From the NCBI GenBank assembly GCA_964559135.1, contig CAZLGG010000004.1, forward strand, positions 3,447 to 67,446: a stretch of DNA of 64,000 bases, given 5' to 3'. Positions 948-30,756 of this stretch are shown here, in pieces. This stretch comes from an uncultured Planctomycetia bacterium. Its GTDB lineage: Bacteria > Planctomycetota > GCA-002687715 > DRQF01. Below the pieces are notes generated by a model that had not been told where the DNA came from, made no database searches, and saw nothing but the letters and a program-made list of their open reading frames with translations. Numbering within the stretch: the stretch's first letter is position 1; every line of letters begins with the position of its first letter. The position numbers and the translations under genes are program-made.

Positions 948-1435
948 CTCTGGTGATCATCCTCATCCTCGTGGGCTGCACACTCGTCGTCGCGGAGCTG
1001 ATGTTCCCCAGCTTCGGGATGCTCGGCATTCTCGCCGTCACCTCGTTTCTGGTCGCTATCTTGAAAGCCTTCGTGATCAGTCCCACCTCCGGGTACCTCG
1101 CGGTGGGTGGCGTCTGCCTGGCGGTTCCACTCGGGATATGGATCGGTCTCACGCTCTTGCAGAAGACGCGCCTTGGGAACAGGCTGCTCATGAAGGGACC
1201 GCCTCCCGAGCAGAACCCGACAGCGGGGACGCCGGATCTTCGGGAGTTGATGGGAGCAAGAGGTCGAACCGTGACGCCCATGCGGCCGGCGGGAATCGTT
1301 CAAATCGGAAATCGAAGGGTCGACGCGGTCAGTGACGGCTCGTTCTTGGAGAACAACAGCCCGGTCCGCGTCACTCACGTAGAAGGAAACCGAGTCGTCG
1401 TCACGGTGGAGACCCCACCGAGCGACGCCCCATGA
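944..1435 (+). CDS. NfeD-like short-form protein (membrane anchor plus OB-fold)
   Basis: 163 aa. N-terminal TM helices and C-terminal motif [40 protein letters not shown] resembling the NfeD OB domain. Start overlaps stop of the upstream gene (ATGA), and stop overlaps the floA start. Confidence 0.6.
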
Positions 1436-2463
1436 ATCAGGAGAATCCCATGATTCCCATCTTGGTCATCGACGTCTGGCAAATCGTTCTCATCGTTCTT
1501 GCCATCGTGTTCTTCGGCCTCTTCATCTTCGTGGTGAAGTACCTCAACCTCTATATTCGTTCCCTGTTCTCCGGAGCAGGCATCGGCATCTTCGAACTGG
1601 TCGGAATGTCCTTGAGGAAGGTCAACGCCACCACGATCGTGAACTCCCGAATTCGCGCGGTCCAAGCCGGCATCGATATCGGCAGGCAGCAACTCGAGGC
1701 GCATTACCTGGCCGGAGGAAACGTCCGCAACGTCGTCTCCGCTCTCATTGCCTCCAACCGCGCCAAGATCGACCTGCAGTTCGATCAGGCCGCGGCCATC
1801 GACCTCGCCGGTCGCGACGTGCTGGACGCTGTCAAGACCTCGGTGAACCCTAAGGTGATCGACTGCCCCGACCCTGCCAAGGGCAAGCCGAAGATCTCCG
1901 CCGTGGCTGGAGACGGCATCGAACTCTTGGCGAAGGCGCGTGTGACCGTGCGCGCCAACATTCAACGGTTGGTCGGCGGTGCAACGGAAGCCACCATCGT
2001 CGCGCGCGTGCAGGAGGGCATCCTGACCACGATCGGTTCGTCCCGAGACCACAAGGTCGTTCTGGAAAACCCCGACATGATCTCTCAGCAGGTCCTCGCC
2101 AAGGGCCTGGACGCCGGCACCGCTTTCGAAATCCTCTCCATCGACATTGCCGACATCGACGTGGGTCAGAACATTCGCTCGAAACTCCAGATCGACCAGG
2201 CCGAGGCGGACAAGAAGGTCGCCCAGGCCAAGGCCGAGGAGCGAAAGGCCATGGCGATCGCTCGCGAGCATGAGATGCGAGCGGAAACCCAGGAGAATCG
2301 GGCCAAGGTCGTCGAGGCGGAGGCGCAAATCCCTCTCGCCATCGCCGATGCCTTTCACAAGGGCAACCTCGGCGTCATGGACTTCTACATGATGAAGAAC
2401 ATCAAGGCCGATACGAGCATGCGCCAGTCGATCTCCGGCGATAACCCGGACCACGAGGACTGA
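1432..2463 (+). CDS. floA: flotillin-like protein FloA (SPFH domain, UPF0365/YqfA family)
   Basis: 343 aa. Near-colinear match in memory to Bacillus YqfA/FloA: N-terminal TM, then [76 protein letters not shown]. Classic nfeD-floA operon arrangement. Confidence 0.9.
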
Positions 2464-2466
2464 TTC

Positions 2467-3069
2467 GTGTCCGAAGAACTGAAACTCCTCTTCTACCTGT
2501 TGATCTTCGGCCTTCCTCTCCTCGCGAACCTGCTCGAGAAGGCGAGGAAAAAGAAGCTCCAGGACCAGAGGCAAACGGGCCGAGGTGTCCGAGGCCAAGC
2601 TTCCAAGGCGCCCCCTCCTAGGGGGACGACCGGGCAACGACCGACTCTCGCCGAGTGGATCGAAGAATTGCGCAGACAGTCCGCGGAAGGCAGCGATCTC
2701 GCTCCAGCGCCGACGCGGCGGCCTCTTCACGAGGACGTCGCCGTCGAGGAGGACGTCAATCCCCCGGAGACCGTGCAGGAGACCGAAACACCCGCGCCTC
2801 CCCCCTTGGCGCCCGCCGAATCCGAGTTCGAGATTCAGCCGGAGGAGTCCCCCCTCTCGGATGCCACTCAACTGCTGGAGTCAGAGGATCTGACCGACGC
2901 GACCGCGCTTGCCTCCGCGGAGACGAGCCTCGTTTCGCCTTCGTCGAGGAGGCGGGGCCTCGTTTTGGACCGAAGTCAAATCCAACGTGCCATCGTCATG
3001 CGGGAGATTCTGGGCCCCCCGCGCGCGCTCGCGATCATGGGGCGCAAGGGCTGGTCCGATAAGATCTGA
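2467..3069 (+). CDS. hypothetical membrane-anchored Pro/Glu-rich protein (possible operon partner of floA, YqfB-position gene)
   Basis: 200 aa ORF with GTG start 3 nt after the floA stop. N-terminal hydrophobic helix (LLFYLLIFGLPLLANLL), then a low-complexity acidic Pro-rich region. No recognisable domain; convergent with the histidine kinase. Confidence 0.4.
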   Translation: MSEELKLLFYLLIFGLPLLANLLEKARKKKLQDQRQTGRGVRGQASKAPPPRGTTGQRPTLAEWIEELRRQSAEGSDLAPAPTRRPLHEDVAVEEDVNPPETVQETETPAPPPLAPAESEFEIQPEESPLSDATQLLESEDLTDATALASAETSLVSPSSRRRGLVLDRSQIQRAIVMREILGPPRALAIMGRKGWSDKI

Positions 3070-18508: not shown

Positions 18509-18790
18509 TCAGCGCATTCGTCTGCGACCGAGCCGGGCCTGTTGGCGGAAGAGCGCAAACAGGAGGAGACATCCGATGAACGCCATACCGACGATGAGTT
18601 CAATGCGATGAGATGAGGATTTGTCCTCATCCACGGGGCGGTCACTTTCCGGGCGGTAGTCCATGTCCTCCAGGTGACCGGATTGCTGGAAGGCGCAAAC
18701 CTTCGGGGCAGGATCGATCGCGATGGGTCGCGCGGACATGACCGGCAGACAACCCAGCCAGACCATGCAGAGGAGGGCCCATCCATTCAT
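18509..18790 (-). CDS. small membrane protein (93 aa), translationally coupled to upstream Wzy_C-TPR gene
   Basis: Start ATG overlaps the stop of the upstream gene (ATGA on minus strand). N-terminal hydrophobic segment MNGWALLCMVWLGCLPVMSA, acidic middle, C-terminal TM IELIVGMAFIGCLLLFALF followed by basic tail. GC3 is compatible with coding, and it fills an otherwise empty 340-bp gap. Hypothetical. Confidence 0.35.
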   Translation of the reverse strand: MNGWALLCMVWLGCLPVMSARPIAIDPAPKVCAFQQSGHLEDMDYRPESDRPVDEDKSSSHRIELIVGMAFIGCLLLFALFRQQARLGRRRMR

Positions 18791-21270
18791 CCGTCGTCCT
18801 CCCTCGTCGCGTTCTCGGCCATCTGCTTCTCCACGTCCCGTAACAAGCCGCGAGCTCGATCGAACAACAACTGGTCCTTGTGAATCCAGATGCATTGACG
18901 CATGCACTCGAGAAGGCTGTCGCGGGCATCCTGGAGTCGGCCGAGTCCCATCAGCGCACGGGCTCGGTGGAAGAGCAAGGAAGGGTCGAGGGGGCGGATG
19001 GCGAAGGCCTCGTCGATGAGCACGAGGGCGGATGCGGGGTCGCCGCGATCCAAGAGTCCGAGACCGACTCTCAGCCGCGCCTCCGACGACAGCGGATCGG
19101 CCTCCATGAGCTTGTTCCAAGCCTGGAAGGCCGCCGGCGAACCCGGGGAGTTTCGCTCGAGGATTTGGGCCCGGGCCTCGAGGACACGAGGCGATGTGGG
19201 ATCGATCGATGCCGCCCGCTGCAGGTGTTCGGTGGCGGATCGGAGTTTGTCGAACAGGTTGAAGATGCGCGCCAGCTCGACGTGGACATCGAGGCGATCG
19301 CCGGGATCGGGTTTCAGGTCGAGGGCCCGCCGCAACCACTCCATGGCGGGCAGGAGGAGCCCCTCTCTGGCTCGCACGCGCCCCATCAAGAGGGCGGCCC
19401 GTGCGGCGCGCGGGTTGAGCGCCACGGCGGTTTCCGCCTCCCGCCGCGCACCCGCGACATCGTCCCGGTTCAAGAGCATCTCCGCCAACACGACGTGTGC
19501 GTTGATGAGATAAGGGTGCAGCGCCAACGCGGAGCGAAAGGCCCTCTCCGCCTCGAGGGGACGTCCGGCACGTCGCAGGGCGTCCCCCACCAAAAGAGCA
19601 TAGCGGTACCGATCCGGCCGGCGGACCCAAGCCGTCTGTGCGTGGATCAGCTCGTTTCTGAGCTGGGCCTCGGCGACTCCGGGTGGGAGGGGCCCGACGC
19701 TGCGAAGCTGGAGAACGCGACGATGGTCTTCGCTCGCCTTCAGGGACGCTCTTCCGTGGGCGGCGGTGAGGACGAACAGTCCCGAGAAGACGAGAACAGG
19801 GATGAGCCGTCGGGACCACGGAACCGAACGGGGCGACCGAGGGGTTGTTTCGGCGCGAAGAACGATGGCGGCCAAGACCCAAAACCCGATGCGCGTTCCC
19901 GTCTGAAGGAAAGGAAACGAGACCATGGACGCCCCGAGAACCACGAGAAGCGAAAGCAACAGGGAACCCCGAAACCGCAGATCGTCGCCACAGGCCCGCC
20001 CAAGCCCCCGGAATCCTCCGAGAAAGACGCCTCCCACGGCAAGGAGCCAAAGGACCGCCCCGGGCAAGCCTCGCTCCGCGGCCAGATGCAACACGTCGTT
20101 ATGGGGTTTCGCGGGTTGGCGGCGCAACTTCAGACGTCCCGTCGCATGGGTGGCGCGCGACGCCGCGTACGCGGGATAAAAGACGGGAAACCCTCCCGGC
20201 CCGAAGCCCGTGACCGGCCGGTCCTCCACCATGGCCAGCGTGTTCTTCCAGAGGACGATCCGCTCCGTCACCGTGGTGTTTTCGCCGTCGAAGGCGGATC
20301 GAATCCGTCGCATCACCGTCGTCGGAGCCTGACCGTGGCGGGCACTTCCTTCGGTGAGCGAGGCCGCCGTCGCGAAGCCGCCCAAGAGCGCCAACGCCAC
20401 GAGTCCATGGAAGGTCAGATGCGCCATCCTGGAGCCGAAAAGAGGTCGATTCCGGGCGGACCGGACGACGAGATAGATCCCGGCCAGCCCGGATGCCCCG
20501 AGGAGGGAAATCATGACCGCCCGCGATCCGGTTTCAGCGATGTAGGTGGCGCAAAGGCCTGCGGCCAGAAGACAAGCCGCTCCCCGCGCGAGGTTCCATG
20601 CCCGGAGACCTCCAGTTCGGACGGCGTAGTTCCAAGCGAGCGCCAAAAGCGGGAACAAAGCCATGGCCACGAACTCCGCACCCATGTTCGGATGCCCGAA
20701 CGTGGAGGCCGGAGTGTCCGCCTGATCCAGGTCCGCGAAGAGACCTCCGGGGAAAACGCCCAGGGAACCCCGATGGGACCCATGCGCCAGCCCGTCCCCG
20801 ACGCCGCCGAGACCCGCAAGGGGGAGATTCGGGTGGGCGAGGAGAAACTGTCCGTGGCCCACGACGGCCGCGATGCACGCCGCCAAGCTCATGGCAACCA
20901 CGGCGCCTCGACGAAAGAATTCGTGAGTGGCGAGCTGCCAGGCCAGCAGAAACCACCCCAGAGTCTCCAGATCCCGCATCACGGGATCGGCGCCCTGAGA
21001 CGGGACGAGGGCCACGGCCCAGCAGACGAGCGCCCATATTGTGAAGATGACAACGAGCTTCGGAGACCAACTCCGTCCTCCGCCGTCCAGGACCTTCATG
21101 GAGCCGAAAACGGCCAGAAAAGCCCACAGACCCCAGATCATGAGCCCTGACAGAATCCGCCGAGGCAACTCGGTTTGTTCGTAGGCCTCCCTCCAATACA
21201 ACAAGGGGAAGATGAGAAGCCCTGCGCAGGCGGCGAGGGCGGCGATACGAATGACTCGCAATGGGGGCAT
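18787..21270 (-). CDS. O-antigen ligase/polymerase-like (Wzy_C) polytopic membrane protein fused to C-terminal TPR repeats
   Basis: About 827 aa from MPPLRVIRIAALAACAGLLIFPLLYW (SD GGAGG 4 nt upstream; the track ORF is open to 21339). N-terminal about 450 aa with about 10 TM helices including the Wzy_C-like stretch with ETGSRAV. The C-terminal about 350 aa are TPR-like (ALALHPYLINAHVVLAEMLL.., AVALNPRAARAALLMGRV.., ALDLKPDPGDRLDVHVELARIF..). Confidence 0.7.
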   Translation of the reverse strand: MPPLRVIRIAALAACAGLLIFPLLYWREAYEQTELPRRILSGLMIWGLWAFLAVFGSMKVLDGGGRSWSPKLVVIFTIWALVCWAVALVPSQGADPVMRDLETLGWFLLAWQLATHEFFRRGAVVAMSLAACIAAVVGHGQFLLAHPNLPLAGLGGVGDGLAHGSHRGSLGVFPGGLFADLDQADTPASTFGHPNMGAEFVAMALFPLLALAWNYAVRTGGLRAWNLARGAACLLAAGLCATYIAETGSRAVMISLLGASGLAGIYLVVRSARNRPLFGSRMAHLTFHGLVALALLGGFATAASLTEGSARHGQAPTTVMRRIRSAFDGENTTVTERIVLWKNTLAMVEDRPVTGFGPGGFPVFYPAYAASRATHATGRLKLRRQPAKPHNDVLHLAAERGLPGAVLWLLAVGGVFLGGFRGLGRACGDDLRFRGSLLLSLLVVLGASMVSFPFLQTGTRIGFWVLAAIVLRAETTPRSPRSVPWSRRLIPVLVFSGLFVLTAAHGRASLKASEDHRRVLQLRSVGPLPPGVAEAQLRNELIHAQTAWVRRPDRYRYALLVGDALRRAGRPLEAERAFRSALALHPYLINAHVVLAEMLLNRDDVAGARREAETAVALNPRAARAALLMGRVRAREGLLLPAMEWLRRALDLKPDPGDRLDVHVELARIFNLFDKLRSATEHLQRAASIDPTSPRVLEARAQILERNSPGSPAAFQAWNKLMEADPLSSEARLRVGLGLLDRGDPASALVLIDEAFAIRPLDPSLLFHRARALMGLGRLQDARDSLLECMRQCIWIHKDQLLFDRARGLLRDVEKQMAENATREDDG

Positions 21271-21428
21271 GAGTCCTCCCGAGAACCCGATTCTTCTCCC
21301 GAGAAAGTTGACCTTTCCTGTCCCGGGTTGCAAGTTCATGCAAGGTCGAGGGGCTCAAGTCTGTCCCCCCGCCCGTCGAAAGTCATTGAAGAGATCGGAC
21401 TTGCCGCAAGTCCTTTGAAAAAACCTTC

Positions 21429-21457
21429 TTGGCGAATCCGAGACGGCCGGGTAAGAT
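21429..21457 (+). promoter_or_regulatory. putative sigma70-type promoter (-35 TTGGCG, 17-nt spacer, -10 TAAGAT) for the Kelch lipoprotein gene
   Basis: Located in the 250-bp divergent spacer, about 70 nt upstream of the start codon at 21525. Confidence 0.3.
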
Positions 21458-21524
21458 CACCTCCGAGATCGGAATGATGTCAGCCGCAACTGCGCGCCAG
21501 GTTTACGGAATAGGGAAACTGCTG

Positions 21525-23534
21525 ATGATGGCGAAGAAGGTGACGAAGGGCATGGCCCTTCTCCTGATCGGCACCGCAATGATGTTGGGAATTCCGGGCT
21601 GCAGCGGTGGAGGGTTCACCCCCCCCAACGCGATCGCTGCCTTGGCTGCAACTATCAACCAGGTGCTGACCCTGACCAACCCCACGACGGGCGAAACCAT
21701 CCTGTGCATCGATTACACGGTGACCGGCGATCCAGGGCAGACTTTCGGCCTGGAATTCAAGTTCTTCGTCGACAGCAACGGCAATGGCATGCCGGATGCC
21801 GGTGAAGCCGAGTTCTCCATGACCGAGGTCAGCACGGCCCTCGAGGCCCTCTTCGGCGTGATGTCGGAGAACGGCTCCAATCTGAACCTCTCCAGCGGTT
21901 CGGCCACGGGCACGTTCTACTGGCAGGCCGGCGCGGATCTCGGATTCGTGGGATCCACGGTTTGCGTAGAAATCACTCCCACGGGAGGATTGAGCGGGCA
22001 GACCGTCCAAACCGGCATTCAATGCAATGTTGTCTACGACGGCGGTAGCCCGCCGGTCACCGTGAATGGCGGCAATATCGGTCCCGGCGGCGCCCAGCCC
22101 GGTCGTGCCCGTCACACGGCCCATGCCGTGAACACCATGCCCAACCCCAGCCTCCTGGCGGTGGGCGGCGTGGATGGCGGCGCCAATGCCGTGAACACCT
22201 TGGATCGCTTCGATCTGGATCTGGGCAACCGGATGCAGGTCTTGGCATTCAGCCAAGCCGGACAGGACACGCGGGTCGGGCACGCTTCGGCGTTCTTTTT
22301 CAACAGCGGCGGCAGCGTGAGCATCTTGGTCACGGGCGGCACCAACACGGGCGCCGTGACCCTGGGCACGACGCCCACCGCCCTCAACACCGCGGACATC
22401 TACCAGTTCAGCCCCACGGAATCCGTGACGGCGACTGCCTCCACCATGCAGATGGACCGGGAACGCCATGCGGCCTGCTGGCTTCCGAACAACACGGTGC
22501 TCATCACCGGTGGCGTCGGCACCAATGCCGGCACGTCCACGTCGGCCGAGATCTATGATCCGGTGAGCGACAGTTTCAGTTTGGTGGCGAGCCTTCCGGG
22601 CGCACGGGCTGACCACACCTGCACCCTGCTCCCCAACGGCATGGTCCTCCTCGCGGGCGGGCGGGATCCCTCGAATCCCACAACACCGCAGCCGGCCTAT
22701 CTCTACGACTTCCGCACCAACACGTGGACGAGTACGGGAACGAACATCGATCGTTACCAGCACACGGCCACTCTCTTGGTGAACGGCGTCTGCGCCCTCA
22801 TCGGCGGCCGCAAGGTCTCCGACGATTCCGTCGTCGCCACGGCCGACTTCTACCGGAGTTTCCCGGAGAACGGTGGGGGCATCCCCGCCGGCTTCACATC
22901 CACCGCGTCGGTCGCGCTGTCCTCGGGACGCACCGAGCATGCGGCGGCGCTCTTGGGGAACACCCAGATCCTGGTCTCCGGCGGCTTCGACAACGGCGCC
23001 CCGGGGAGTGCGCTCAGCAGCAGCGAACTCTTCATCCCCACGACCTTCACGAGCCTGACCATCGGCACGTTCAGCCCGGTGACCGCGCTCACGACGGCTC
23101 GTGCGCGGCACACGTCGACCACGCTGCCCGGGGGCACCAACGTCCTTCTCGGAGGCGTCACGGGCACCATGGGAATGGAATCAGCCCTCAACACCATCGA
23201 GGTCTACCAATTCAACAACTCGGCCCCGTCGGTGAGCAACATCGTCATCTCGGCGCCCAGTGGACCCGCTGCGGCCGGGATCACGTTCGACCTCGCGGAT
23301 GCCGAAGGGGACCGGGCCTTCGTGATCGTCCGCTTCTCGACGGACGGCGGCCAGACCTATCAGTTCGCAACCCTCACGGACTACGCGAAAACCGTCAATC
23401 TGGCTCCCGGCAGCCACATGTTGGACTGGAATGCCGCGGCGGATGGCCTGAGCGCGGGTCAAGCCGTTACCCTCGAGATCATCCCTGTCGGAGGGACGAT
23501 GGGAGCCCCCACCACGGTGAACTTCAATCTCTGA
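21525..23534 (+). CDS. Kelch-repeat (beta-propeller) lipoprotein with C-terminal beta-sandwich domain
   Basis: Lipoprotein signal MMAKKVTKGMALLLIGTAMMLGIPGC. Six Kelch-like blades, each ending in a hydrophobic-x-GG motif (HAACWLPNNTVLITGG, HTCTLLPNGMVLLAGG, HTATLLVNGVCALIGG, HAAALLGNTQILVSGG, HTSTTLPGGTNVLLGG). Gly/Thr/Asn-rich N-terminal domain. The ORF is open from 21429; the lipobox-proximal start was chosen. Confidence 0.7.
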   Translation: MMAKKVTKGMALLLIGTAMMLGIPGCSGGGFTPPNAIAALAATINQVLTLTNPTTGETILCIDYTVTGDPGQTFGLEFKFFVDSNGNGMPDAGEAEFSMTEVSTALEALFGVMSENGSNLNLSSGSATGTFYWQAGADLGFVGSTVCVEITPTGGLSGQTVQTGIQCNVVYDGGSPPVTVNGGNIGPGGAQPGRARHTAHAVNTMPNPSLLAVGGVDGGANAVNTLDRFDLDLGNRMQVLAFSQAGQDTRVGHASAFFFNSGGSVSILVTGGTNTGAVTLGTTPTALNTADIYQFSPTESVTATASTMQMDRERHAACWLPNNTVLITGGVGTNAGTSTSAEIYDPVSDSFSLVASLPGARADHTCTLLPNGMVLLAGGRDPSNPTTPQPAYLYDFRTNTWTSTGTNIDRYQHTATLLVNGVCALIGGRKVSDDSVVATADFYRSFPENGGGIPAGFTSTASVALSSGRTEHAAALLGNTQILVSGGFDNGAPGSALSSSELFIPTTFTSLTIGTFSPVTALTTARARHTSTTLPGGTNVLLGGVTGTMGMESALNTIEVYQFNNSAPSVSNIVISAPSGPAAAGITFDLADAEGDRAFVIVRFSTDGGQTYQFATLTDYAKTVNLAPGSHMLDWNAAADGLSAGQAVTLEIIPVGGTMGAPTTVNFNL

Positions 23535-23890: not shown

Positions 23891-25222
23891 TCAATAGCCG
23901 ATCTTACCCCGGAGGAACGAAGCGACGGCGTCGATAGCAACCCGTTCCTGTGCCATGGAATCCCGATCGCGGATCGTCACCGTGCCGTTCTCCTTGGAGT
24001 CGTGATCCACGGTGATGCAGTAGGGGGTGCCGATCTCGTCTTGTCGCCGGTAGCGGCGACCGATGGCCCCGCTTTGGTCGTAGAAGACGTTGAACTGTCT
24101 TCTTAGATCCTCTTCCAGCTTGTGGGCGATGTCGGGAAGGCCGTCTTTTTTCACCAATGGGAAGATGCCCGCCTTGATGGGGGCGAGCTTGGGATGCAGA
24201 TGGAGAACCGTTCGAGAATCGCCATCCTCCAACGCCTCCTCATCGTAGCCGTCCACGAGGAAGACGAGGACTGCGCGATCCACTCCGAGGGCGGGCTCGA
24301 TCACGTAGGGCCAATAGCGTTCCTTGGTCTGATCGTCGAAAAAGCGCAGATCCCGGCCCGTGGCCTCCTGGTGACGCTTCAGATCGAAATCGGTCCGGTT
24401 GGCGACGCCTTCCAATTCCTTCCAGCCGAAGGGAAACTGGTACTCGAGATCCGCGCAGGCCTTCGAGTAGTGGGCCAGTTCGTTCCCTTCATGCTCGCGA
24501 AAGCGCATGCGGTCGGGGTCCACGCCCAGGTCGAGAAACCATTGCAGACGTTCCTTGCACCAGTACTCATACCAGGTGTCCGCCTCTGCCGGGGGGACGA
24601 AGAATTCCATCTCCATCTGCTCGAATTCCCGGCTCCGGAAGATGAAGTTCTCCGTCACGATCTCGTTGCGGAATGACTTCCCCTGCTGCGCAATCCCGAA
24701 GGGGGGCTTGACGCGCGAGGTCTCGAGGACGTTCTTGAAGTTGACGAAAATGCCCTGAGCCGTCTCCGGACGGAGGTACACGGCGGACTCCTGGCTTTCC
24801 ACCGGCCCCATGTTCGTCTTGAACATCAGATTGAACTGCCGGGGTTCGGTCAGTTCGCCGTCGCATTCCCCCGGCCGCTTCGACGGTTTTTCGGGACAGA
24901 CCTGGGTGTCCAGCGTGTCCGCGCGGAATCGTGCCTTGCATTTCTTGCAATCCACGAGGGGATCGTTGAATCCGGAAACGTGGCCACTGGTCTCCCAGAC
25001 CTTCGGGTGCATGAGGATCGATGTGTCCAGTCCGACGACGTCGGAGCGGCCCCGCACCAGGACGTTCCACCATGCATCCTTGACGTTCCGCTTCAACTCC
25101 ACGCCCAAGGGGCCATAGTCCCAGCAGGACTTGAGACCTCCATAAATCTCGCTGGAGGGGAAGACGAATCCTCGGCGCTTGCAGAGCGACACGAGCTTTT
25201 CCATGGTATCGGCGGGTTTCAA
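23891..25222 (-). CDS. glyQS: glycine--tRNA ligase, dimeric alpha2 type
   Basis: 443 aa. MEKLVSLCKRRGFVFPSSEIYGGL.., class II motifs FRNEIVTENFIFRSREFEQMEMEFF and anticodon-binding C-terminus. True start may be the Met at residue 7 (25204). Confidence 0.9.
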   Translation of the reverse strand: MKPADTMEKLVSLCKRRGFVFPSSEIYGGLKSCWDYGPLGVELKRNVKDAWWNVLVRGRSDVVGLDTSILMHPKVWETSGHVSGFNDPLVDCKKCKARFRADTLDTQVCPEKPSKRPGECDGELTEPRQFNLMFKTNMGPVESQESAVYLRPETAQGIFVNFKNVLETSRVKPPFGIAQQGKSFRNEIVTENFIFRSREFEQMEMEFFVPPAEADTWYEYWCKERLQWFLDLGVDPDRMRFREHEGNELAHYSKACADLEYQFPFGWKELEGVANRTDFDLKRHQEATGRDLRFFDDQTKERYWPYVIEPALGVDRAVLVFLVDGYDEEALEDGDSRTVLHLHPKLAPIKAGIFPLVKKDGLPDIAHKLEEDLRRQFNVFYDQSGAIGRRYRRQDEIGTPYCITVDHDSKENGTVTIRDRDSMAQERVAIDAVASFLRGKIGY

Positions 25223-25330
25223 AATGACGGCCCTCGTTCGCGCGGAGAGACAAGCTTCTCGGAGAGCCGGATTATGCGGGGGGGGGCTGGGACTTTCAAC
25301 GCACGGGCGGATCTCGAGCGGCGATCGGGG

Positions 25331-26095
25331 TTAGCGAACTTCCTGTCCGGCACGCTGCAAGTGGAAACGGCCTGCCGCCTCGACATGGGACCGGAAGAGC
25401 GCCAGATTGAAATCCAGATTCGTGAAGGTGAGTTCCGGGTGCCATTGGACGGCCCGAGCGAAAGTGTGTTTCTCACTCGCCATCGCCTCGGCCACTCCGT
25501 CGGTCGCCTTGGCGACGATGGTGAATCCGGGCGCCGGTTCCTTCACGCACTGGTGATGGTAGCTGTTCACCCGCACCTTGGTCTCCCCCACCAGATGATG
25601 CAGCCAGCTATCGTCCATGATTTCGATGCTGTGGGAGGGATACTCCTCGGTGAGCTTTTGGAAGTGGAGCAGCGTCTCGTTCCCCATCTGGGACTCGATA
25701 TCCTGCACGAGCGTTCCTCCCGCCGCCACATTGAGGACCTGCATTCCCCGACAGATTCCGAAGGTGGGCATATCTCGGGAAAGGGCTTCCCGGGTCAGGA
25801 TCATCTCGGTGACGTCGCGGAGGGGATTGATCTGCTCGATGCGGCGGTGCGGTTCTTCCCCGTACCAAGACGGATCGACGTCGAACCCTCCGGTGAGCAG
25901 AAGGCCGTCACAGACATCCAGGAGCTGAATCAGGACCTCCGCGTTCTGGGTCAGCGGCAAGATCATAGGCACCCCGCCTGCGGCCTCGACGGCCTGAACG
26001 TAGTGCATGGAGACGCCGAAACGGGGGTAGGGACGGTCGTTGTGGGTGAAGTAGATCTTCCGGGATGACACGCCGATGACTGGCCGTCGACTCAT
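25331..26095 (-). CDS. class I glutamine amidotransferase-like / peptidase C26 family hydrolase (gamma-glutamyl hydrolase-type)
   Basis: 254 aa. Catalytic triad context GICRGMQVLNVAAGGTL (Cys nucleophile) and ..HHQCV..WHPE.. (His/Glu). PuuD/C26-like fold. Confidence 0.8.
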   Translation of the reverse strand: MSRRPVIGVSSRKIYFTHNDRPYPRFGVSMHYVQAVEAAGGVPMILPLTQNAEVLIQLLDVCDGLLLTGGFDVDPSWYGEEPHRRIEQINPLRDVTEMILTREALSRDMPTFGICRGMQVLNVAAGGTLVQDIESQMGNETLLHFQKLTEEYPSHSIEIMDDSWLHHLVGETKVRVNSYHHQCVKEPAPGFTIVAKATDGVAEAMASEKHTFARAVQWHPELTFTNLDFNLALFRSHVEAAGRFHLQRAGQEVR

Positions 26096-26157
26096 GCACT
26101 CGTTCTCCTGCGGCTGGGGTCAATCCATGATGACAGAACCAGGGGTCGGGAAAACCC

Positions 26158-27243
26158 TCATTTCGCCTTCTTGAGGAATCCCGGAGTCTTCATGGCCAAC
26201 TCGGTGACCTTGCCGAGACTGCGGCCTTCGCAGGTGATGCAGCTCTTGTAGGGGGAGCGGTGCCGCTTCATCTCCTCGCGAAGCGTCTTATAGGCCTCGC
26301 CGTTCCAGACCCGATCGAAGCCGTCCTCGAAGAGATTGCCGAAGTCGACCTTCTCGTCCATCTGGAGTGCGCAGCAAGGCGTCACCTTGCCGTCGATCGC
26401 CACGTAGATCTGAACCCATGGATAGATGCAATCCGGGCTCTTCTCCTCGGGGTTGAAGTCGTCCTTGTAGCGTTCCTCGTAGAAAGGAAGCAGGGAGATG
26501 ATCTCCTCGAGGTTCGTGGGAACACCCAGGGAGTCCCCCAACTCTCGGGTCTCGACGAGAGCTTGGCGATAGGCGTCCCTGCTGAGGCCTCCCAGCAGCT
26601 CGTCCTCTCTCTCCTCGATGCCCACCAGGTTCATGGGGCGGAAGTTCACCCGGCACACGCCCATTTCCTTGGCCAGCTCGACAACGGACTTCATCTCGTG
26701 AAGGTTGTCTCGACCGAGGACGTATTCGAAGCCGACGTCGGGTCGGGAAATACCTCGCTCCTCCTTCAGAGCCTGGATGGCGCGAATCCCCTCGAGGATG
26801 GCCTCATGGAAATCGGCGAGGCGCATCTTCCGATAGGTCTCGGCCGTGGCGGCATCGATGGAGAGGCGAAGCGCCCAAAGTCCCGAGTCCACGATCTGCT
26901 CCGCCAACTCCGGCCCAAGCGTGCCGTTGCTGGTGACGATGGCCTTCGCGTCGTGGTCGCGGACGTACGCCAGCATCTTGAAGAGGTCCGGACACAGCGT
27001 CGGCTCGCCGTCGCCCGCGAACGTGACGCGCATGGGCTTCACGTCGTCGAACACCTCCTTGAAGGTCTCGAACGTCATATGCTTGGGACGAAAGACGTTC
27101 TTCTCGCGGACGCAGAACGCGCACTTGAGATTGCAGAACGTGGTCGGCTCGATCTGGAGATGCAAAGGCGTGTTCGACACCTTTTGCGGCCGGGCCAGGA
27201 CGCTGATCCCGGCTTTCATCATGTTGGCGATTCCGCCCATCAC
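26158..27243 (-). CDS. radical SAM enzyme with C-terminal SPASM/twitch Cys-rich domain
   Basis: 361 aa. CxxxCxxC cluster motif IEPTTFCNLKCAFC, SAM-binding FAGDGEPTL, C-terminal auxiliary-cluster cysteines (DCIYPW..TPCCALQ..SCITCEG). Good SD (AGGAGA) 5 nt upstream of ATG. Confidence 0.8.
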   Translation of the reverse strand: MMGGIANMMKAGISVLARPQKVSNTPLHLQIEPTTFCNLKCAFCVREKNVFRPKHMTFETFKEVFDDVKPMRVTFAGDGEPTLCPDLFKMLAYVRDHDAKAIVTSNGTLGPELAEQIVDSGLWALRLSIDAATAETYRKMRLADFHEAILEGIRAIQALKEERGISRPDVGFEYVLGRDNLHEMKSVVELAKEMGVCRVNFRPMNLVGIEEREDELLGGLSRDAYRQALVETRELGDSLGVPTNLEEIISLLPFYEERYKDDFNPEEKSPDCIYPWVQIYVAIDGKVTPCCALQMDEKVDFGNLFEDGFDRVWNGEAYKTLREEMKRHRSPYKSCITCEGRSLGKVTELAMKTPGFLKKAK

Positions 27244-27267
27244 GTTCTCCTAAATCGTCACGGCAAA

Positions 27268-27293
27268 AGAATATGCACTTGCAAGCATATTCT
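27268..27293. promoter_or_regulatory. perfect 9-bp inverted repeat AGAATATGC-N8-GCATATTCT, 25 nt upstream of the radical SAM start codon
   Basis: AT-rich perfect palindrome in a 65% GC genome. It sits between the GT4 stop and the rSAM SD. Candidate operator for a dimeric regulator, or an RNA hairpin (weak terminator/attenuator) after the GT4 gene. Confidence 0.4.
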
Positions 27294-27352
27294 GCCCTGC
27301 CTCGTCACGCCAAGGAATTCCGCTTTACGGTCTCCCGGCACACCTGAAATTG

Positions 27353-28618
27353 TCATCCGACCGACACTTCCGGCCGATCCTCCGTGATCGCACTCCCGAG
27401 CAGGTTCTCATAGAGAGTCTTGACCGGAATGAGGGTGCGATCCCAGTTTCTGATATTTCTCACCGCCTCACGGCCGGCCCGGCCCTCCTCGCGGAGCGCC
27501 TCGTCCGTACGGTCCAGAGCCCGGTTCAAAAGGGCATGCAAGGCCTCGAAGTCCCCGGCACGGAAGGTCTCTCCCACGCCGCATTCCTCGAACAATTCTC
27601 GAATCCCGCCCACGTCGCTCCCCAAGGTGCAGCGCTCCATGGCCATCGCCTCGAGGGGCTTCAAGGGCGTGACCTTCTCGGTCAACCGTTTCGAACGGCG
27701 CGGGTAGATGAAGAGATCCCCGAGGGCGTAGTGGTCCTGCACCTCGTCGTGAGGCACCCTCCCAGTGAGATGCACGACGTCATCCAGCCCCAGCTCTCGG
27801 ACGAGAGCTTCCACGTTGGGCGTGTCCTCGCCGGAACCCACGAGTAGCAAGACGAAGTCGTCCCGCTCCCTGCGCAGTCGATCGGCGGCGCGAACCAGAT
27901 CGGTGAGCCCCTCGTAGAAGAAGAAGCTCCCGATGAATGCGATGACGCGTTTCCCCTCGAAGCCGTAGCGCTCCTCGAGCTCGGCGGGCTTCGGCCGGGG
28001 TTGAAACGTGTCCGGTTCCACACCGTTCTTGACGACCGTGATCTTCTCCGCGGACAGGCCTCGCTCGACGAGGTCCCTTCGCAGGCCCTCGCAGATGCAG
28101 ACCACGGCATCGGCGGCGCGTGTCACCTCGGACTCCAGCCTGCGCACTTGGCGGTAGACGAACCCGTCCTCGGTGATCTTGCCCTTGTCGACAGCATCGT
28201 CTTCCCAGAAGGCGCGGATCTCGTACACGACGGGAATGCCCAATCGCTTGCCGACGGCGACGGCGGCTTGGCCGTTGAAGAAGGGGGAGTGGGCGTGAAT
28301 CAGATCCGGACGGAACGAGCGCCCCACCTCCTCCAGGCGCCGCACCATCGCCCCCGTCATGATCCGCTCCTTCCAAAAGGGGATCTTGAGCTGCACCCGA
28401 GACCACATACGCTTCGGCCGCGCAGTCCGAAAATGGCGAATGCCGTCGAGGATTTCCTCCTCGCCCGCATCCGCCCCGTGGCGGGCCGAAGTGACGACGG
28501 CGACTTCCGCTCCCATGCTCTTCAGTCCGCGCAGGATATACCGGCTCCGGAAGCTGTAGCCGGAATACTGGGGCAAGGAATGGTCGAGCAGATGTAGGAC
28601 ACGCATGCGAAACTCCAA
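27353..28618 (-). CDS. glycosyltransferase family 4 (GT-B, retaining)
   Basis: 421 aa. N-terminal MRVLHLLDHSLPQYSGYSFRSR, C-terminal GT4 signature GSFFFYEGL..LLLVGSGED, EKVTPLKPLEAMAMERCTLGSDVGGIRE (E-x7-E). Resembles exopolysaccharide-locus GT4 enzymes. Confidence 0.85.
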   Translation of the reverse strand: MEFRMRVLHLLDHSLPQYSGYSFRSRYILRGLKSMGAEVAVVTSARHGADAGEEEILDGIRHFRTARPKRMWSRVQLKIPFWKERIMTGAMVRRLEEVGRSFRPDLIHAHSPFFNGQAAVAVGKRLGIPVVYEIRAFWEDDAVDKGKITEDGFVYRQVRRLESEVTRAADAVVCICEGLRRDLVERGLSAEKITVVKNGVEPDTFQPRPKPAELEERYGFEGKRVIAFIGSFFFYEGLTDLVRAADRLRRERDDFVLLLVGSGEDTPNVEALVRELGLDDVVHLTGRVPHDEVQDHYALGDLFIYPRRSKRLTEKVTPLKPLEAMAMERCTLGSDVGGIRELFEECGVGETFRAGDFEALHALLNRALDRTDEALREEGRAGREAVRNIRNWDRTLIPVKTLYENLLGSAITEDRPEVSVG

Positions 28619-28682
28619 CTCACTCTATCGAAATCCCGGGCCTGTTCTCCAAGAAGTCGATATTCTCCCACCGAGAATCTCC

Positions 28683-29480
28683 AGCATGTCGCCTCATCAT
28701 CTTCTCCTCGCCCTCTGCATGGCACTCCTGTCCGCCCTCGGTTGCACGACGGCGCCGGACCTCCCTGAAAACGCCGACCCCATCCAGGCCATGTCCGTCC
28801 TGGGTGAACATGCGGACCATTTCGAGGGCGAGGATCCACGATGCGTCCTGGTCATCATGGATCGCCATTCGGCCCGCCCTGGTTTTCGACGGGTCCGCCT
28901 GCAGTTGCGCCGCATCCAGCGGGAACACCGGCTGCTCATCGAGAATTTCCTCCGGCATGGTTACCGGGTGTTGGGCTGCGAGTACCCCTTCGGCCCTCTC
29001 GAGGAGACCGAGGACACGGCTCGGGAGTACCGCATCGTTCGCACCTGGATGTATCCGAGGGACACCCTCGATGAATACGGCGTCTTTCAGCCCCTCCGCT
29101 TCCAGCTGATGTACCCGCAACTCGAGGTCTGGGGCGTCGAGGATCCGGATCTCCACGCGAAGGACCGCGAGTCTTGGGAGACCTACGTCACGGAAACCGC
29201 TCGGGCTCGACGCAAGGATCAGTCGGAGGCGGACCGGAGGGCTCATCTCGCCCGAGCGGATCGCGCCGCCCGGGAGCTGAATCGCAACGTGCGGGCTCGA
29301 GGCCGCGCGGCGGCTCTCAATCTGTTGGAAGCCCTGGATCGGCTGGGACGAAAACGAGGCATCCTGATCCTGGGCGGCGCCCACATTCCGGCGGCCCTCG
29401 AGGTCTTTCGTCGACGCGGCGTCAGCTACGACGTCTATCGCTCACACCACTACGACGAGCACACCGACGACGCACACTGA
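28683..29480 (+). CDS. hypothetical lipoprotein
   Basis: Lipoprotein signal MSPHHLLLALCMALLSALGC (lipobox LSALGC). 265 aa with no recognisable domain. Divergent from the GT4 gene; the ORF is open from 28605. Confidence 0.5.
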   Translation, partial: SMSPHHLLLALCMALLSALGCTTAPDLPENADPIQAMSVLGEHADHFEGEDPRCVLVIMDRHSARPGFRRVRLQLRRIQREHRLLIENFLRHGYRVLGCEYPFGPLEETEDTAREYRIVRTWMYPRDTLDEYGVFQPLRFQLMYPQLEVWGVEDPDLHAKDRESWETYVTETARARRKDQSEADRRAHLARADRAARELNRNVRARGRAAALNLLEALDRLGRKRGILILGGAHIPAALEVFRRRGVSYDVYRSHHYDEHTDDAH

Positions 29481-29664: not shown

Positions 29665-30756
29665 GTGGCCAGGTCTCTTGGTGAGTCTCAAAATGTCCGT
29701 CACCTTCGCCGATCCCGTGACGTCTCGATGGCAGACGTGAGGTGTTTTCTCGAGACAAGGAAGGGAGACGTCGTCGTGCACGGAACTCATGATGGGGTGA
29801 CGCGGTTCGTTCTGAGTGATGCGGCGAGGATGAGGACCCTGCTCACGCATCTGCCCGATCCACCCCTCCCCTGGGTCAGCACCCTGGACACACTGGTGCA
29901 TTGGCCGGACGGCTTCGGCGAAGAATCGCCCGGGGCCCGACGAGCGGATATCGTCTTCGCCGGCCTCCCCGCGGCAGACGGGACGCCCCGTACCTGCCTC
30001 GTCTTCGAGAACCAGAGCATTCCCCTGTTGCACATGCCGATGCGCGCCCTCTGGTGCACCGTCCAAGTCTTGCGGGATTTCCGCGAGACCTTCGGACACG
30101 AAGCCACCCTGCCTGAGATCCATATCGTCGTGTTCTACCACGGAGAAAAGCCCTGGAGAGGCCCTCTCGCGTTGTACGTCGACGACGATGACGCACGTCG
30201 CTCCTCCATCAACTGCCGCTTCCATCTCATCGATCTGAATCGCATCAGTGACGAGGACATTCAGGAGCGTCTGGGGACGGGCCTGCTCACCCTGGGGGCC
30301 CTCGTTTTGAAACATGGCCGGCGCCCCGGCATGGGGGACAAGATTCCCGCCTGGGATCGTCACTTCGCCGCCGCCCTCGACGAAAACGGAGGCATGGACG
30401 GGGTCCGTGCCTGCATCGACTATCTTTTGGACGTTTCCGACGTGGGGCTGGAGGAGATTGAAGCCCTTCCCTTCGTACGGGACTCATGGGAGGTGCATAT
30501 CATGCTGAAGACGACGGGGCGAGAGCTCAGAGAAGAAGGTCGCCTCGTAGGCCGGGCCCAAGGGCTCGAGGAGGGCCGGGCCGAGGGCCGCGCGAAAGAG
30601 AGACGGGAGATGCTCCGCCTTCTCTTGCTCCGCCTGTTCGATGGCATTCCGGAGGATCTGGAGACCCGCATCGCAAAAGCATCCCCCGCGACCCTGACGC
30701 TGCTCATCGAAGCCGCCTTCGAGGTGGACGATCCGTCCGATCTCTTGAACGTTTGA
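29665..30756 (+). CDS. Rpn-family recombination-promoting nuclease / putative transposase (YhgA-like PD-(D/E)XK nuclease with C-terminal DUF4351)
   Basis: N-terminal HGTHDGVTRFVLSD..LLTHLP block matches the Rpn PHDxxFKxxL motif region. PD-(D/E)XK-like core (DIVFAG.., LVFENQS..). C-terminal LLLLRLFDGIPEDLETRIAKASPATLTLLIEAAFEVDDPSDLLNV is a typical DUF4351 tail. The start may instead be the Met at 29728. Confidence 0.7.
   Translation: MARSLGESQNVRHLRRSRDVSMADVRCFLETRKGDVVVHGTHDGVTRFVLSDAARMRTLLTHLPDPPLPWVSTLDTLVHWPDGFGEESPGARRADIVFAGLPAADGTPRTCLVFENQSIPLLHMPMRALWCTVQVLRDFRETFGHEATLPEIHIVVFYHGEKPWRGPLALYVDDDDARRSSINCRFHLIDLNRISDEDIQERLGTGLLTLGALVLKHGRRPGMGDKIPAWDRHFAAALDENGGMDGVRACIDYLLDVSDVGLEEIEALPFVRDSWEVHIMLKTTGRELREEGRLVGRAQGLEEGRAEGRAKERREMLRLLLLRLFDGIPEDLETRIAKASPATLTLLIEAAFEVDDPSDLLNV

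Follow-up and report, generated by a model that had tools for sequence, protein, structure and literature searches.

The reading that we favour for this locus, at a probability of roughly 0.55, is that its three genes, encoding a GT4 glycosyltransferase (GT4), a radical SAM enzyme (rSAM) and a C26 hydrolase (C26), form a small module for glycan or glycoconjugate biosynthesis, and not a peptide-maturation cluster. It is based on the match of the glycosyltransferase to TIGR04063, the retention of the trio in all related loci, the glycan contexts and glycosyltransferase fusions of distant rSAM homologues, the twitch-type cysteines and BlsE/DesII-like fold of the rSAM, the action of BtrN on an aminocyclitol, and the fact that no conserved small ORF is present. 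Of the interpretation offered in the initial annotation, the exopolysaccharide link and the co-conservation of the genes held, whereas the RiPP or anSME-like reading, the conserved operator and the terminator did not.

In the favoured scheme, the GT4 would move a sugar onto a lipid-linked or other glycan acceptor, and the rSAM would remove a hydrogen atom at a carbon of the sugar, either in the donor or in what the GT4 makes, with an outcome in the style of BtrN, DesII or BlsE, i.e. keto-sugar oxidation, epimerisation, deamination/dehydration or decarboxylation. The C26 enzyme, going by its family membership only, would most likely act on an intermediate to cleave off a gamma-glutamyl-type amide, or else supply ammonia. 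While the pairing of GT4 and rSAM is directly observed, we infer the substrate class and reaction of the rSAM from context and distant similarity (TM about 0.6, 15-20% identity), since its family has no characterised member.

Organisation and conservation of the locus

The three genes lie on the minus strand of the window, i.e. the whole 64-kb stretch that was analysed, and are transcribed in the order GT4, rSAM, C26. Their positions, shared strand and order are as first annotated, and so are the lengths of the spacers, 109 bp between GT4 and rSAM and 62 bp between rSAM and C26. The features are as follows.

28686..29480, plus strand: lipoprotein, family unassigned, divergent from GT4; possible member of the unit
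27353..28606, minus strand: GT4, GT-B fold glycosyltransferase of the TIGR04063 'PEP-CTERM/XrtA system' type, 417 aa
27244..27352, minus strand: GT4-rSAM spacer, 109 bp, with the palindrome, the promoter-like motif and a non-conserved 32-codon ORF
27284..27313, minus strand: promoter-like motif TTGGCG-N18-TATGCT, read from the sequence and from relatives
27268..27293, no strand assigned: perfect 9-bp inverted repeat AGAATATGC-N8-GCATATTCT, an exact match in the sequence
26158..27243, minus strand: rSAM, radical SAM enzyme with a predicted twitch-type C-terminal domain, 360-361 aa
25331..26095, minus strand: C26, Peptidase C26 / class-I glutamine-amidotransferase-like hydrolase (gamma-glutamyl amide hydrolase type), 254 aa

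The longest ORF for GT4 extends to 28618, and its likely start is the ATG giving MRVLHLL; the rSAM probably starts, as its relatives do, from the ATG at 27240, for a protein of 360 aa. The divergent lipoprotein has a signal peptide with the lipobox LSALGC and returned no match in Pfam and NCBIfam searches; a homologue (26-84% identity), likewise divergent and upstream of GT4, is encoded at nearly every related Planctomycetota locus. Apart from the three-gene unit the window is a housekeeping region, in which profile searches found no exosortase, EpsI, PrsK/R/T, PEP-CTERM protein, flippase or priming transferase, and a scan of the 64 kb for the PEP-CTERM C-terminal motif returned one spurious ORF only.

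The GT4 carries the Pfam domains Glyco_trans_4_4 and Glycos_transf_1, and belongs to TIGR04063 by a narrow margin of 2 bits (444 bits against a cut-off of 442.05, profile positions 1-396 of 397); its orthologue in locus L001 scores 468 bits. This score, along with the distant rSAM homologues found in exosortase/EpsI and Wzx/Wzy loci, bears out the suggestion, made initially as an alternative, of an exopolysaccharide or PEP-CTERM-type locus. Orthologues of the GT4 (47-90% identity) immediately precede the rSAM in 13 Planctomycetota loci. The proposed check on co-conservation was likewise positive, as the GT4-rSAM-C26 trio is kept in 13 of 13 related Planctomycetota loci (rSAM identity 63-97%), despite the inversion of glyQS in eight of them (L001, L016-L020, L022, L023) and its absence from another (L021).

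The C26 protein matches Peptidase_C26 (PF07722) with 238 bits and has the catalytic triad C115/H219/E221, which places it in the C26 family. At 117 bits against the PuuD equivalog cut-off of 266, it is probably not PuuD itself, and it reaches 37 bits against the 250 of NF045546. By structure it comes closest to Lin1909, a 'probable glutamine amidotransferase' (7d4r) and PuuD.

The radical SAM enzyme and its relatives

Membership of the radical SAM superfamily is clear from the Pfam match (Radical_SAM, PF04055, 73 bits), from the CX3CX2C motif, C37/C41/C44, kept in 112-115 of 115 family representatives, and from the GGE-type SAM motif, AGDGEP, in which G79 and E80 are conserved. The SPASM call of the initial annotation stands in so far as the Pfam SPASM domain is matched (59 bits), but the cysteines provide for one auxiliary cluster only, of the twitch type. 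SPASM proper (TIGR04085 type) has the seven-Cys pattern CX9-15GX4C ... CX2CX5CX3C ... C with two auxiliary [4Fe-4S] clusters, while twitch is a shortened SPASM with a single auxiliary cluster and Cys ligands C...C...CX2C. The rSAM has C272-X12-G285-X4-C290(C291) followed by C335-X2-C338, where the four auxiliary cysteines C272, C290, C335 and C338 are kept in 114-115 of 115 representatives, the extra Cys291 is largely conserved (98/115), and 109/115 have no Cys beyond the CxxC. A full SPASM domain was thus rejected, the second-cluster motif being absent, and a twitch domain is indicated by the cysteine conservation and the alignment with the BtrN ligand cysteines. The model NF033640, 'twitch domain-containing rSAM', matches residues 272-339 with 73 bits, against a whole-protein cut-off of 170. 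On its cysteines, the rSAM is predicted to carry the SAM-cleaving [4Fe-4S] cluster and one twitch-type auxiliary cluster.

None of the NCBIfam subfamilies is reached by the rSAM. The best, TIGR04317, gives 132 bits against 380, with PqqE (63 against 381), MftC (72 against 265) and StsB (46 against 625) lower still, and no anSME model is among the NCBIfam matches listed, the PDB match to anSME being marginal (E = 0.005). The subfamilies named as candidates at the outset, anSME, PqqE and MftC, therefore do not accommodate the enzyme, and neither do the sactisynthases. In fold searches with its AF2 model (pLDDT 84), the top Foldseek matches are BlsE and DesII, and the peptide-modifying enzymes SuiB, SkfB and CteB score nearly as high.

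The contexts of distant homologues are those of polysaccharide synthesis. At 32-46% identity, these proteins are encoded in polysaccharide loci of the Wzx/Wzy type and of the exosortase/EpsI type, mostly with glycosyltransferases next to them, and their neighbours include GT2 enzymes, GT4 enzymes (some TIGR03087-like), Wzx, Wzy_C, polysaccharide deacetylase, sulfotransferase, EpsI, FemAB (TIGR03019, 288 bits against a cut-off of 260) and XrtA-like exosortases (177-190 bits against 208). At a Latescibacterota locus, 3 nt separate an rSAM homologue of 39% identity from the TIGR04063-like GT4 upstream of it (378 bits, under the cut-off), in the order Wza-Wzz-Wzx-GT4-GT4-rSAM-GT4-EPS-type polyprenyl glycosylphosphotransferase (TIGR03025). 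Fusion proteins were also found: GT4::rSAM in P0079 (aligned with the window rSAM over 349 aa at 33% identity, on a single 4.9-kb contig), GT2::rSAM in P0150, and methyltransferase::rSAM in P0102 and P0183. The rSAM is thus a member of a widespread, unstudied family that is linked to exopolysaccharide and exosortase clusters rather than to peptide maturation.

The palindrome and the promoter-like motif

The inverted repeat AGAATATGC-N8-GCATATTCT lies exactly where it had been annotated. The distance from its end to the AGGAGA Shine-Dalgarno sequence is 16 nt, instead of the 12 nt given at first, and to the rSAM GTG it is 24 nt. When perfect inverted repeats (stem of at least 9 bp, loop of 3-12 nt) were counted over the whole window and compared with first-order Markov simulations, 8 were observed against 4.1 +/- 2.0 simulated, and 1 AT-rich one against 0.2 expected, so the palindrome is real but only modestly unlikely.

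The palindrome overlaps TTGGCG-N18-TATGCT, whose -35 box is at 27313..27308 and whose -10 box, at 27289..27284, falls within the 5' arm on the gene strand. The nearest relative, L011 (97%), carries the same motif; in 12 of 13 other related loci examined, a TAGAMT/TAAACT box precedes the rSAM start by 17-58 nt, and a TTG-type hexamer (one CTG) was seen 17-18 nt before the box in the eight loci inspected upstream. A generic sigma-70 scan did not call the motif, which we infer from these letters to be a promoter-like element; it would drive rSAM and C26 separately from GT4.

It is quite unlikely that the palindrome itself controls rSAM and C26, as the operator of a dimeric repressor or as a hairpin or terminator separating the transcripts. 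The perfect 9+9 bp dyad, rare in its AT-rich form, and its overlap with the -10-like box would fit such a role, as would the RNA of the gene strand, which folds into a longer hairpin of 15 pairs (-18.8 kcal/mol, z = -4.2) and retains a weaker one of -12 kcal/mol in L011. However, 2 of the 9 pairs are changed in L011 (arms CGAATATGC / GTATATTCT) by two non-compensatory substitutions, one leaving a mismatch and the other a G.U pair, and the dyad is missing from the 13 more distant related loci that were compared. The 64 kb contain no further copy, even with 3 mismatches allowed; among 48 metagenomic matches the single related one is this very locus in this organism; and no regulator gene adjoins. 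An intrinsic terminator, which would show a GC-rich stem and then a free U-tract, or a known RNA element was rejected, as a scan of 25000..29000 found no terminator-like site, the U-run near the palindrome is paired within the extended stem, and Rfam gave no match at E <= 1. The proposals of a conserved operator marking a regulon and of a terminating hairpin accordingly find no support: the dyad is strain-specific, is no conserved regulatory signal and would at most serve locally as an operator or hairpin; it may be a locus-specific operator overlapping the putative promoter.

Alternative explanations and the closest known systems

It is quite unlikely, in our view, that the rSAM is a RiPP-type or anSME-like maturase whose peptide or protein substrate, such as an exosortase-sorted protein or the lipoprotein next to GT4, is encoded elsewhere and glycosylated by the GT4. 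The Pfam SPASM match, SuiB, SkfB, CteB and anSME among the fold-search matches, the nearest curated families (TIGR04317 and TIGR04311, both putative metalloenzyme 'maturases') and the conserved lipoprotein gene beside GT4 are all consistent with it; exosortase loci are linked to protein sorting, and SkfB, a peptide-modifying enzyme, is also twitch-type, which counts against the glycan reading. No precursor ORF had been evident in the spacers at first, and this needs correcting: a 32-codon ORF with the product MTISGVPGDRKAEFLGVTRQGRICLQVHILLP occupies 27258..27356 on the minus strand in the GT4-rSAM spacer, its ATG overlapping the GT4 stop codon. It is not conserved: a frameshift in L011 turns the corresponding ORF into 35 aa of unrelated sequence, and nothing equivalent occurs in the 13 more distant related loci that were compared. 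The ORF is treated here as non-coding. Pfam and NCBIfam searches found no RRE domain, protease or ABC exporter in the three-gene unit, and the rSAM, with about 25 residues ahead of its core, has no RRE/PqqD-like N-terminal domain, so that a RiPP cluster was rejected. The single predicted auxiliary cluster, the scores far under the PqqE and MftC cut-offs, the marginal anSME match and the fusions, whose partners are glycosyltransferases and methyltransferases with no peptidase or transporter among them, argue in the same direction, and the RiPP or anSME-like reading first proposed is not upheld.

A different objection, unlikely as we judge it, is that the three genes are not one unit, GT4 and rSAM being paired while C26, and perhaps the whole arrangement, is kept by synteny alone. 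C26 is absent from every rSAM context examined outside the Planctomycetota clade, and this confinement to one syntenic clade means that shared ancestry could explain the linkage. Moreover, its family is very large and generic (5637 matches at E <= 1e-30), a 46% homologue sits in an unrelated context, several housekeeping neighbours are equally syntenic (glyQS, a Kelch lipoprotein and Wzy_C-TPR accompany the trio), and the rSAM-C26 spacers are mostly 40-150 nt, without overlap. Against this, C26 lies immediately 3' of rSAM on the same strand in 13/13 loci irrespective of the glyQS rearrangements, the gap between them shrinks to 1 nt in L001, and all the placeable C26 orthologues of at least 49% identity that were sampled belong to the trio. 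In the favoured reading, C26 is a lineage-specific third partner of the GT4/rSAM module. Very unlikely, finally, is an operon for a small glycoside metabolite, e.g. a low-molecular-weight thiol or similar, in which the GT4 would act like MshA or BshA, the rSAM would form or rearrange a bond anaerobically and C26 would remove a gamma-glutamyl carrier. The unit is indeed minimal, set in a housekeeping region without flippase or polymerase; C26 enzymes cleave small-molecule gamma-glutamyl amides, to go by the PuuD and NF045546 family names; and the GT4 resembles BshA (72 bits) and MshA (62 bits), with such matches in the PDB as well. Those NCBIfam scores are, however, far under their cut-offs and typical of any GT4, the model actually reached is TIGR04063, the distant rSAM homologues are in polymer-export loci, and no ligase or deacetylase is present.

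Among known systems, PuuD, 7d4r and the Cj1417-type gamma-glutamyl-CDP-amidate hydrolase (NF045546), whose family works in capsular polysaccharide modification, share the fold and Cys-His-Glu triad of C26, which differs in falling under every equivalog cut-off and in having no glutamine-synthetase-like gamma-glutamyl ligase nearby. TIGR04317, 'tungsten cofactor oxidoreductase radical SAM maturase', is the best curated family for the rSAM and all tested distant homologues (107-145 bits), but all scores are far under the 380-bit cut-off and no aldehyde:ferredoxin oxidoreductase-type neighbour was seen; none of the family members tested scored above the curated cut-off of any radical SAM model. 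XrtA/PEP-CTERM loci comprise TIGR04063/03087/03088 glycosyltransferases, FemAB TIGR03019, EpsI and exosortase A, and no radical SAM enzyme is known to belong to the described XrtA system, which has exosortase A, EpsI and PEP-CTERM substrate proteins within one genome and mostly at one locus. The GT4 and the neighbours of the distant rSAM homologues (XrtA-like exosortases, EpsI, TIGR03019 FemAB) connect the module to these loci, from which it differs as three genes in a housekeeping region without exosortase, EpsI, PrsK/R/T or PEP-CTERM protein.

The nearest enzymes in fold, BlsE (cytosylglucuronate decarboxylase) and DesII (TDP-4-amino-4,6-dideoxyglucose deaminase/dehydrogenase), are radical SAM enzymes whose substrates are nucleoside- or nucleotide-linked sugars. 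They match the rSAM model with E = 4e-15 to 1e-13 and TM 0.6-0.68 and were also found by sequence profile, although they are only 19-20% identical to the rSAM and come from antibiotic-biosynthesis contexts. The archetypal twitch-domain radical SAM enzyme is BtrN, the butirosin 2-deoxy-scyllo-inosamine dehydrogenase. The window rSAM differs from it in overall similarity (about 15% identity, TM about 0.45), in being about 110 residues longer with the extra Cys291, and in its setting, beside a GT4 in a polysaccharide-type context where BtrN belongs to an aminoglycoside cluster. BtrN is a four-Cys twitch dehydrogenase that acts on an aminocyclitol, a carbohydrate-like small molecule (PMC9012708). 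It is also the best PDB sequence match of the rSAM (E = 2.4e-12), and the two have in common the CX3CX2C core and one auxiliary [4Fe-4S] site, predicted in the rSAM from the alignment of C272/C290/C335/C338 with the BtrN cluster cysteines.

Layout and conservation of the trio

Three genes on the minus strand, encoding a GT4 glycosyltransferase, a radical SAM enzyme (rSAM) and a peptidase-C26-type hydrolase (C26), together the trio, lie in a housekeeping region of this Planctomycete. Their order on a shared strand, with spacers of 109 bp (GT4-rSAM) and 62 bp (rSAM-C26), is as the initial annotation had it, and Pfam and NCBIfam upheld all three domain calls. The trio and the neighboring genes discussed here are the following.

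Genes of the trio and its surroundings
18787..21339, minus: Wzy_C (O-antigen-ligase-like) protein fused to TPR repeats
21429..23534, plus: Kelch-repeat lipoprotein
23891..25222: glyQS, downstream of the trio
25331..26095, minus: C26, last of the trio
26158..27243, minus: rSAM, second in the trio; probable start at the ATG at 27240
27353..28606, minus: GT4, first gene of the trio in transcription order
28686..29480, plus: lipoprotein gene, upstream of GT4 and divergent from it
29665..30756, plus: Rpn/YhgA-like gene (Pfam Transposase_31), next after the lipoprotein gene

Close homologs of the rSAM (63–97% identity) were found only in Planctomycetota MAGs, with Isosphaeraceae/Singulisphaera-type genomes among those hit and the nearest being that of isolate HyVt-576 (locus L011, 97% identical), while the metagenome contig L035 represents the same organism and locus at 99.96% identity. 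The order GT4–rSAM–C26 on one strand, with a lipoprotein gene divergent upstream, was seen directly in 13 of 13 related Planctomycetota loci, although glyQS was inverted in eight of them and absent in one. Since the three genes are retained together in every one of these loci, the lack of co-conservation that had been named as counter-evidence to a functional grouping was not encountered.

With its Cys115/His219/Glu221 triad, the C26 protein has the usual features of a class-I amidotransferase-like hydrolase of the C26 family; among known structures it most resembles Lin1909, a 'probable glutamine amidotransferase' (7d4r) and PuuD, and it scored under every equivalog cut-off. All sampled orthologs of at least 49% identity that could be placed belong to a trio, and a 46% homolog sits in an unrelated neighborhood, so that support for a link between C26 and the rSAM comes only from one syntenic lineage; a functional link is likely but unproven. 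Judging from family membership, C26 would either strip a gamma-glutamyl-type amide or supply ammonia.

Several flanking genes deserve mention in their own right. The lipoprotein encoded at 28686..29480 has a lipobox (LSALGC) and matches no Pfam or NCBIfam family; its gene is divergently paired with GT4 in nearly all 13 related loci, at 26-84% identity, and the protein may form one functional unit with the trio, either as its substrate or as a periplasmic partner. The Rpn/YhgA-like gene occurs in L035, from the same organism, and is missing in L011, where the gap between pheT and the lipoprotein gene is only ~35 bp. It has the look of a recent ~1.4-kb insertion between these two genes. The genes for the Wzy_C-TPR protein and the Kelch-repeat lipoprotein are syntenic with the trio in most relatives, with glyQS in between, and a link of these two to protein or lipid glycosylation is possible. 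In one relative (SXUL01000086.1, locus L085), a PMT_2/GT-C-type glycosyltransferase gene (703 aa; 613..2724, minus strand), which is absent from the window, lies just past the divergent lipoprotein gene as a further envelope-glycosylation gene near the trio.

The rSAM family and its glycosyltransferase neighbors

The best curated model for the rSAM was TIGR04317, at 132 bits against a cut-off of 380, and no curated subfamily was reached: anSME, PqqE, MftC, AhbD/NirJ, MoaA, Tes, viperin and others all scored far under their cut-offs, with PqqE, MftC, AhbD/NirJ, MoaA and others also much below the TIGR04317 score. The cofactor-binding architecture can be read directly from the cysteines. In an alignment of 17 homologs, the invariant residues were the CX3CX2C motif (C37, C41, C44) and, downstream of it, only C272, C290, C291, C335 and C338. 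An exhaustive profile search supplied 115 representatives, of which all have C272, C290 and C335, 114 have C338 and 98 have C291. Because 109 of the 115 lack a cysteine beyond the CxxC, the seven-cysteine SPASM signature is without its CX5CX3C part. The radical SAM and SPASM Pfam domains of the earlier assignment stand, but not a full SPASM domain; the C-terminal domain is of the twitch type, with cysteines for one auxiliary cluster (as defined in PMC9012708).

By sequence profile, the solved structure that matched best was BtrN, followed by DesII, BlsE and GDGT-MAS; the four cysteines of the auxiliary cluster in BtrN line up with the four that are conserved in the rSAM. A fold search of the AlphaFold2 model (mean pLDDT 84, pTM 0.86) against the PDB ranked BlsE and DesII first, then the peptide-modifying SuiB, SkfB and CteB, and then BtrN. 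The nearest characterized relatives are therefore mostly sugar-modifying enzymes, which at 15–20% identity is a lead and not proof.

The suggestion of an exopolysaccharide or PEP-CTERM association now has direct profile support, since GT4 scored 444 bits on TIGR04063, the NCBIfam model for the PEP-CTERM/XrtA-system glycosyltransferase, narrowly over the cut-off of 442.05, and the ortholog of a 55%-identical relative scored 468 bits. All remaining GT4 models were far under threshold. No exosortase or PEP-CTERM protein was found within the 64-kb window.

Beyond the Planctomycetota clade C26 is no longer seen, while glycosyltransferases and polysaccharide genes are still found beside the rSAM. 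In Latescibacterota, a homolog of 39% identity lies in the order Wza, Wzz, Wzx, GT4, TIGR04063-like GT4 (378 bits), rSAM, TIGR03087-like GT4 and EPS-type polyprenyl glycosylphosphotransferase (TIGR03025). The surroundings of homologs with 43–46% identity include XrtA-like exosortases (177–190 bits vs 208), EpsI, a FemAB protein that exceeds the cut-off of TIGR03019, GT2s, a sulfotransferase, Wzy_C, Wzx and a polysaccharide deacetylase. A 32% homolog has an LPG_synthase_TM protein on one side and a GT4 on the other, with EpsI nearby. In this sample, the contigs of P0041 and P0045 were too short to inform, and loci L026, L030 and L031 were uninformative or unrelated. Two loci of distant homologs, L010 and L024, share an identical string downstream of the rSAM gene (GT2, FemAB-like, PRK-family kinase, unknown gene, trypsin-like protease, unknown gene, XrtA-like exosortase), which looks like a distinct, recurrent variant of the exosortase system.

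The exhaustive profile search also showed the family to be far larger than a word-indexed search had suggested, with 2716 matches at E ≤ 1e-30 and more than 150 clusters or representatives at 50% identity matching at E < 1e-55, from Planctomycetota, Latescibacterota, one Aenigmatarchaeota archaeon and unclassified metagenomic lineages. Members include a GT4::rSAM fusion (P0079), the rSAM half of which shares 33% identity with the window protein across 349 residues, a GT2::rSAM fusion (P0150), two methyltransferase::rSAM fusions (P0102, P0183) and tandem proteins with 2–4 rSAM units. Among these tandem proteins are P0057, P0062, P0068, P0116, P0129, P0134 and P0140, which are 800-1900 aa long and are built of two to four rSAM-twitch copies. 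The tie to polysaccharide and exosortase loci and to glycosyltransferase fusions is a direct observation, and the case for the rSAM working with a glycosyltransferase is made most strongly by the adjacency kept across phyla together with the fusions.

The GT4-rSAM spacer

A SPASM-like domain on a radical SAM enzyme is routinely taken to mark a peptide natural-product cluster, and RiPP maturation had been offered as one reading of this locus. The initial annotation saw no precursor ORF in the spacer; one of 32 codons does in fact fill it (27258..27356, minus strand), its ATG overlapping the stop codon of GT4 as ATGA, but it is not conserved. A 1-nt indel in L011 shifts its frame, giving an unrelated product of 35 aa, and the more distant relatives have no equivalent, so the ORF is not under coding constraint and was rejected as a precursor peptide. 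Nor does the GT4-rSAM-C26 unit encode an RRE-like N-terminal domain, a protease or an exporter. A RiPP reading is not supported here, and the peptide-cluster interpretation is probably wrong for a sizeable family, in which the partner is a glycosyltransferase.

The same spacer holds an AT-rich palindrome, AGAATATGC-N8-GCATATTCT, whose sequence and position (27268..27293) were exactly as first described, but which is 16 nt, and not 12, from the AGGAGA ribosome-binding site. Perfect inverted repeats with stems of 9 bp or more occur 8 times in the window, where first-order Markov simulations gave 4.1 ± 2.0, and 1 of the 8 is AT-rich against 0.2 expected, so that its occurrence by chance is only moderately unlikely. 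The proposal that it marks a regulon was not supported: even when 3 mismatches are allowed, the window has no second copy, the half-site is found there at chance frequency, and an exact-pattern scan of metagenome contigs gave 48 matches, of which the sole related one is L035, which is this locus in this organism. Conservation in relatives, a check that had been named, also failed; the arms in L011 (CGAATATGC / GTATATTCT) have lost one pair and turned another into G·T, with no compensation, and no dyad is present at this position in 13 more distant related loci. The gene-strand RNA could form a hairpin of 15 pairs (−18.8 kcal/mol, z = −4.2), which is not terminator-like because its U-run belongs to the stem; no terminator or Rfam family was called at the palindrome, and both explanations were rejected.

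The local AT-richness is best explained by a putative internal promoter for rSAM–C26, because a −10-like box is positionally conserved and in the window and L011 falls within the palindrome's 5' arm. Of 13 other related loci, 12 have such a box (TAGAAT, TAGACT, TAGTAT or TAAACT) 17–58 nt ahead of the rSAM start, and in all eight loci inspected upstream of it a TTG-type hexamer (one CTG) precedes it by 17–18 nt; the window and L011 have TTGGCG/TTGGCC-N18-TATGCT. Since a generic sigma-70 scan did not call TTGGCG-N18-TATGCT, the promoter reading draws solely on the positional conservation of the −10-like boxes. The dyad itself may be a strain-specific operator or fortuitous, and its significance is local. 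Six GC-rich metagenome contigs (L033, L037, L060, L075, L078 and L079), unrelated to the window organism, also carry AGAATATGC-N8-GCATATTCT, flanked by additional TATGCC/GGCATA or TATTCC/GGAATA half-sites and TTGAC-like boxes, an arrangement that resembles the operator arrays of some regulator family.

A putative glycan-modification module

The best interpretation of the locus is a minimal module for glycan modification, consisting of a TIGR04063-type GT4, an uncharacterized twitch rSAM and a lineage-specific C26 hydrolase; for the rSAM we infer a sugar substrate and the type of radical reaction. More broadly, we tentatively propose, at a probability of about 0.4, that the rSAM represents a large single-auxiliary-cluster family performing radical chemistry directly on the sugars of exopolysaccharides or glycoconjugates, in physical partnership with glycosyltransferases. 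In this Planctomycete lineage, the system would have been cut down to a core-genome module of three genes with a gamma-glutamyl hydrolase. Its product may be a modified sugar of an unusual kind, destined for the cell envelope or used by the syntenic Wzy_C-TPR protein to glycosylate lipoproteins. As a conserved core-genome unit, the trio may bear on the poorly understood cell envelope of this Planctomycete.

If the family does modify polysaccharide sugars, it would provide an oxygen-independent route to unusual sugars in the exopolysaccharides and exosortase-associated matrices of environmental bacteria, and a function for a gene left unnamed by current curated models. In the searchable literature, full-text searches on TIGR04063 and on radical SAM enzymes in connection with exosortases, PEP-CTERM or capsular polysaccharide found no paper on the family, and we know of no description of radical chemistry on sugars by such enzymes in exosortase-type EPS pathways. 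Sugar-active twitch rSAM enzymes as such are already known, and it is among enzymes of that kind that the uncharacterized family described here would be placed.
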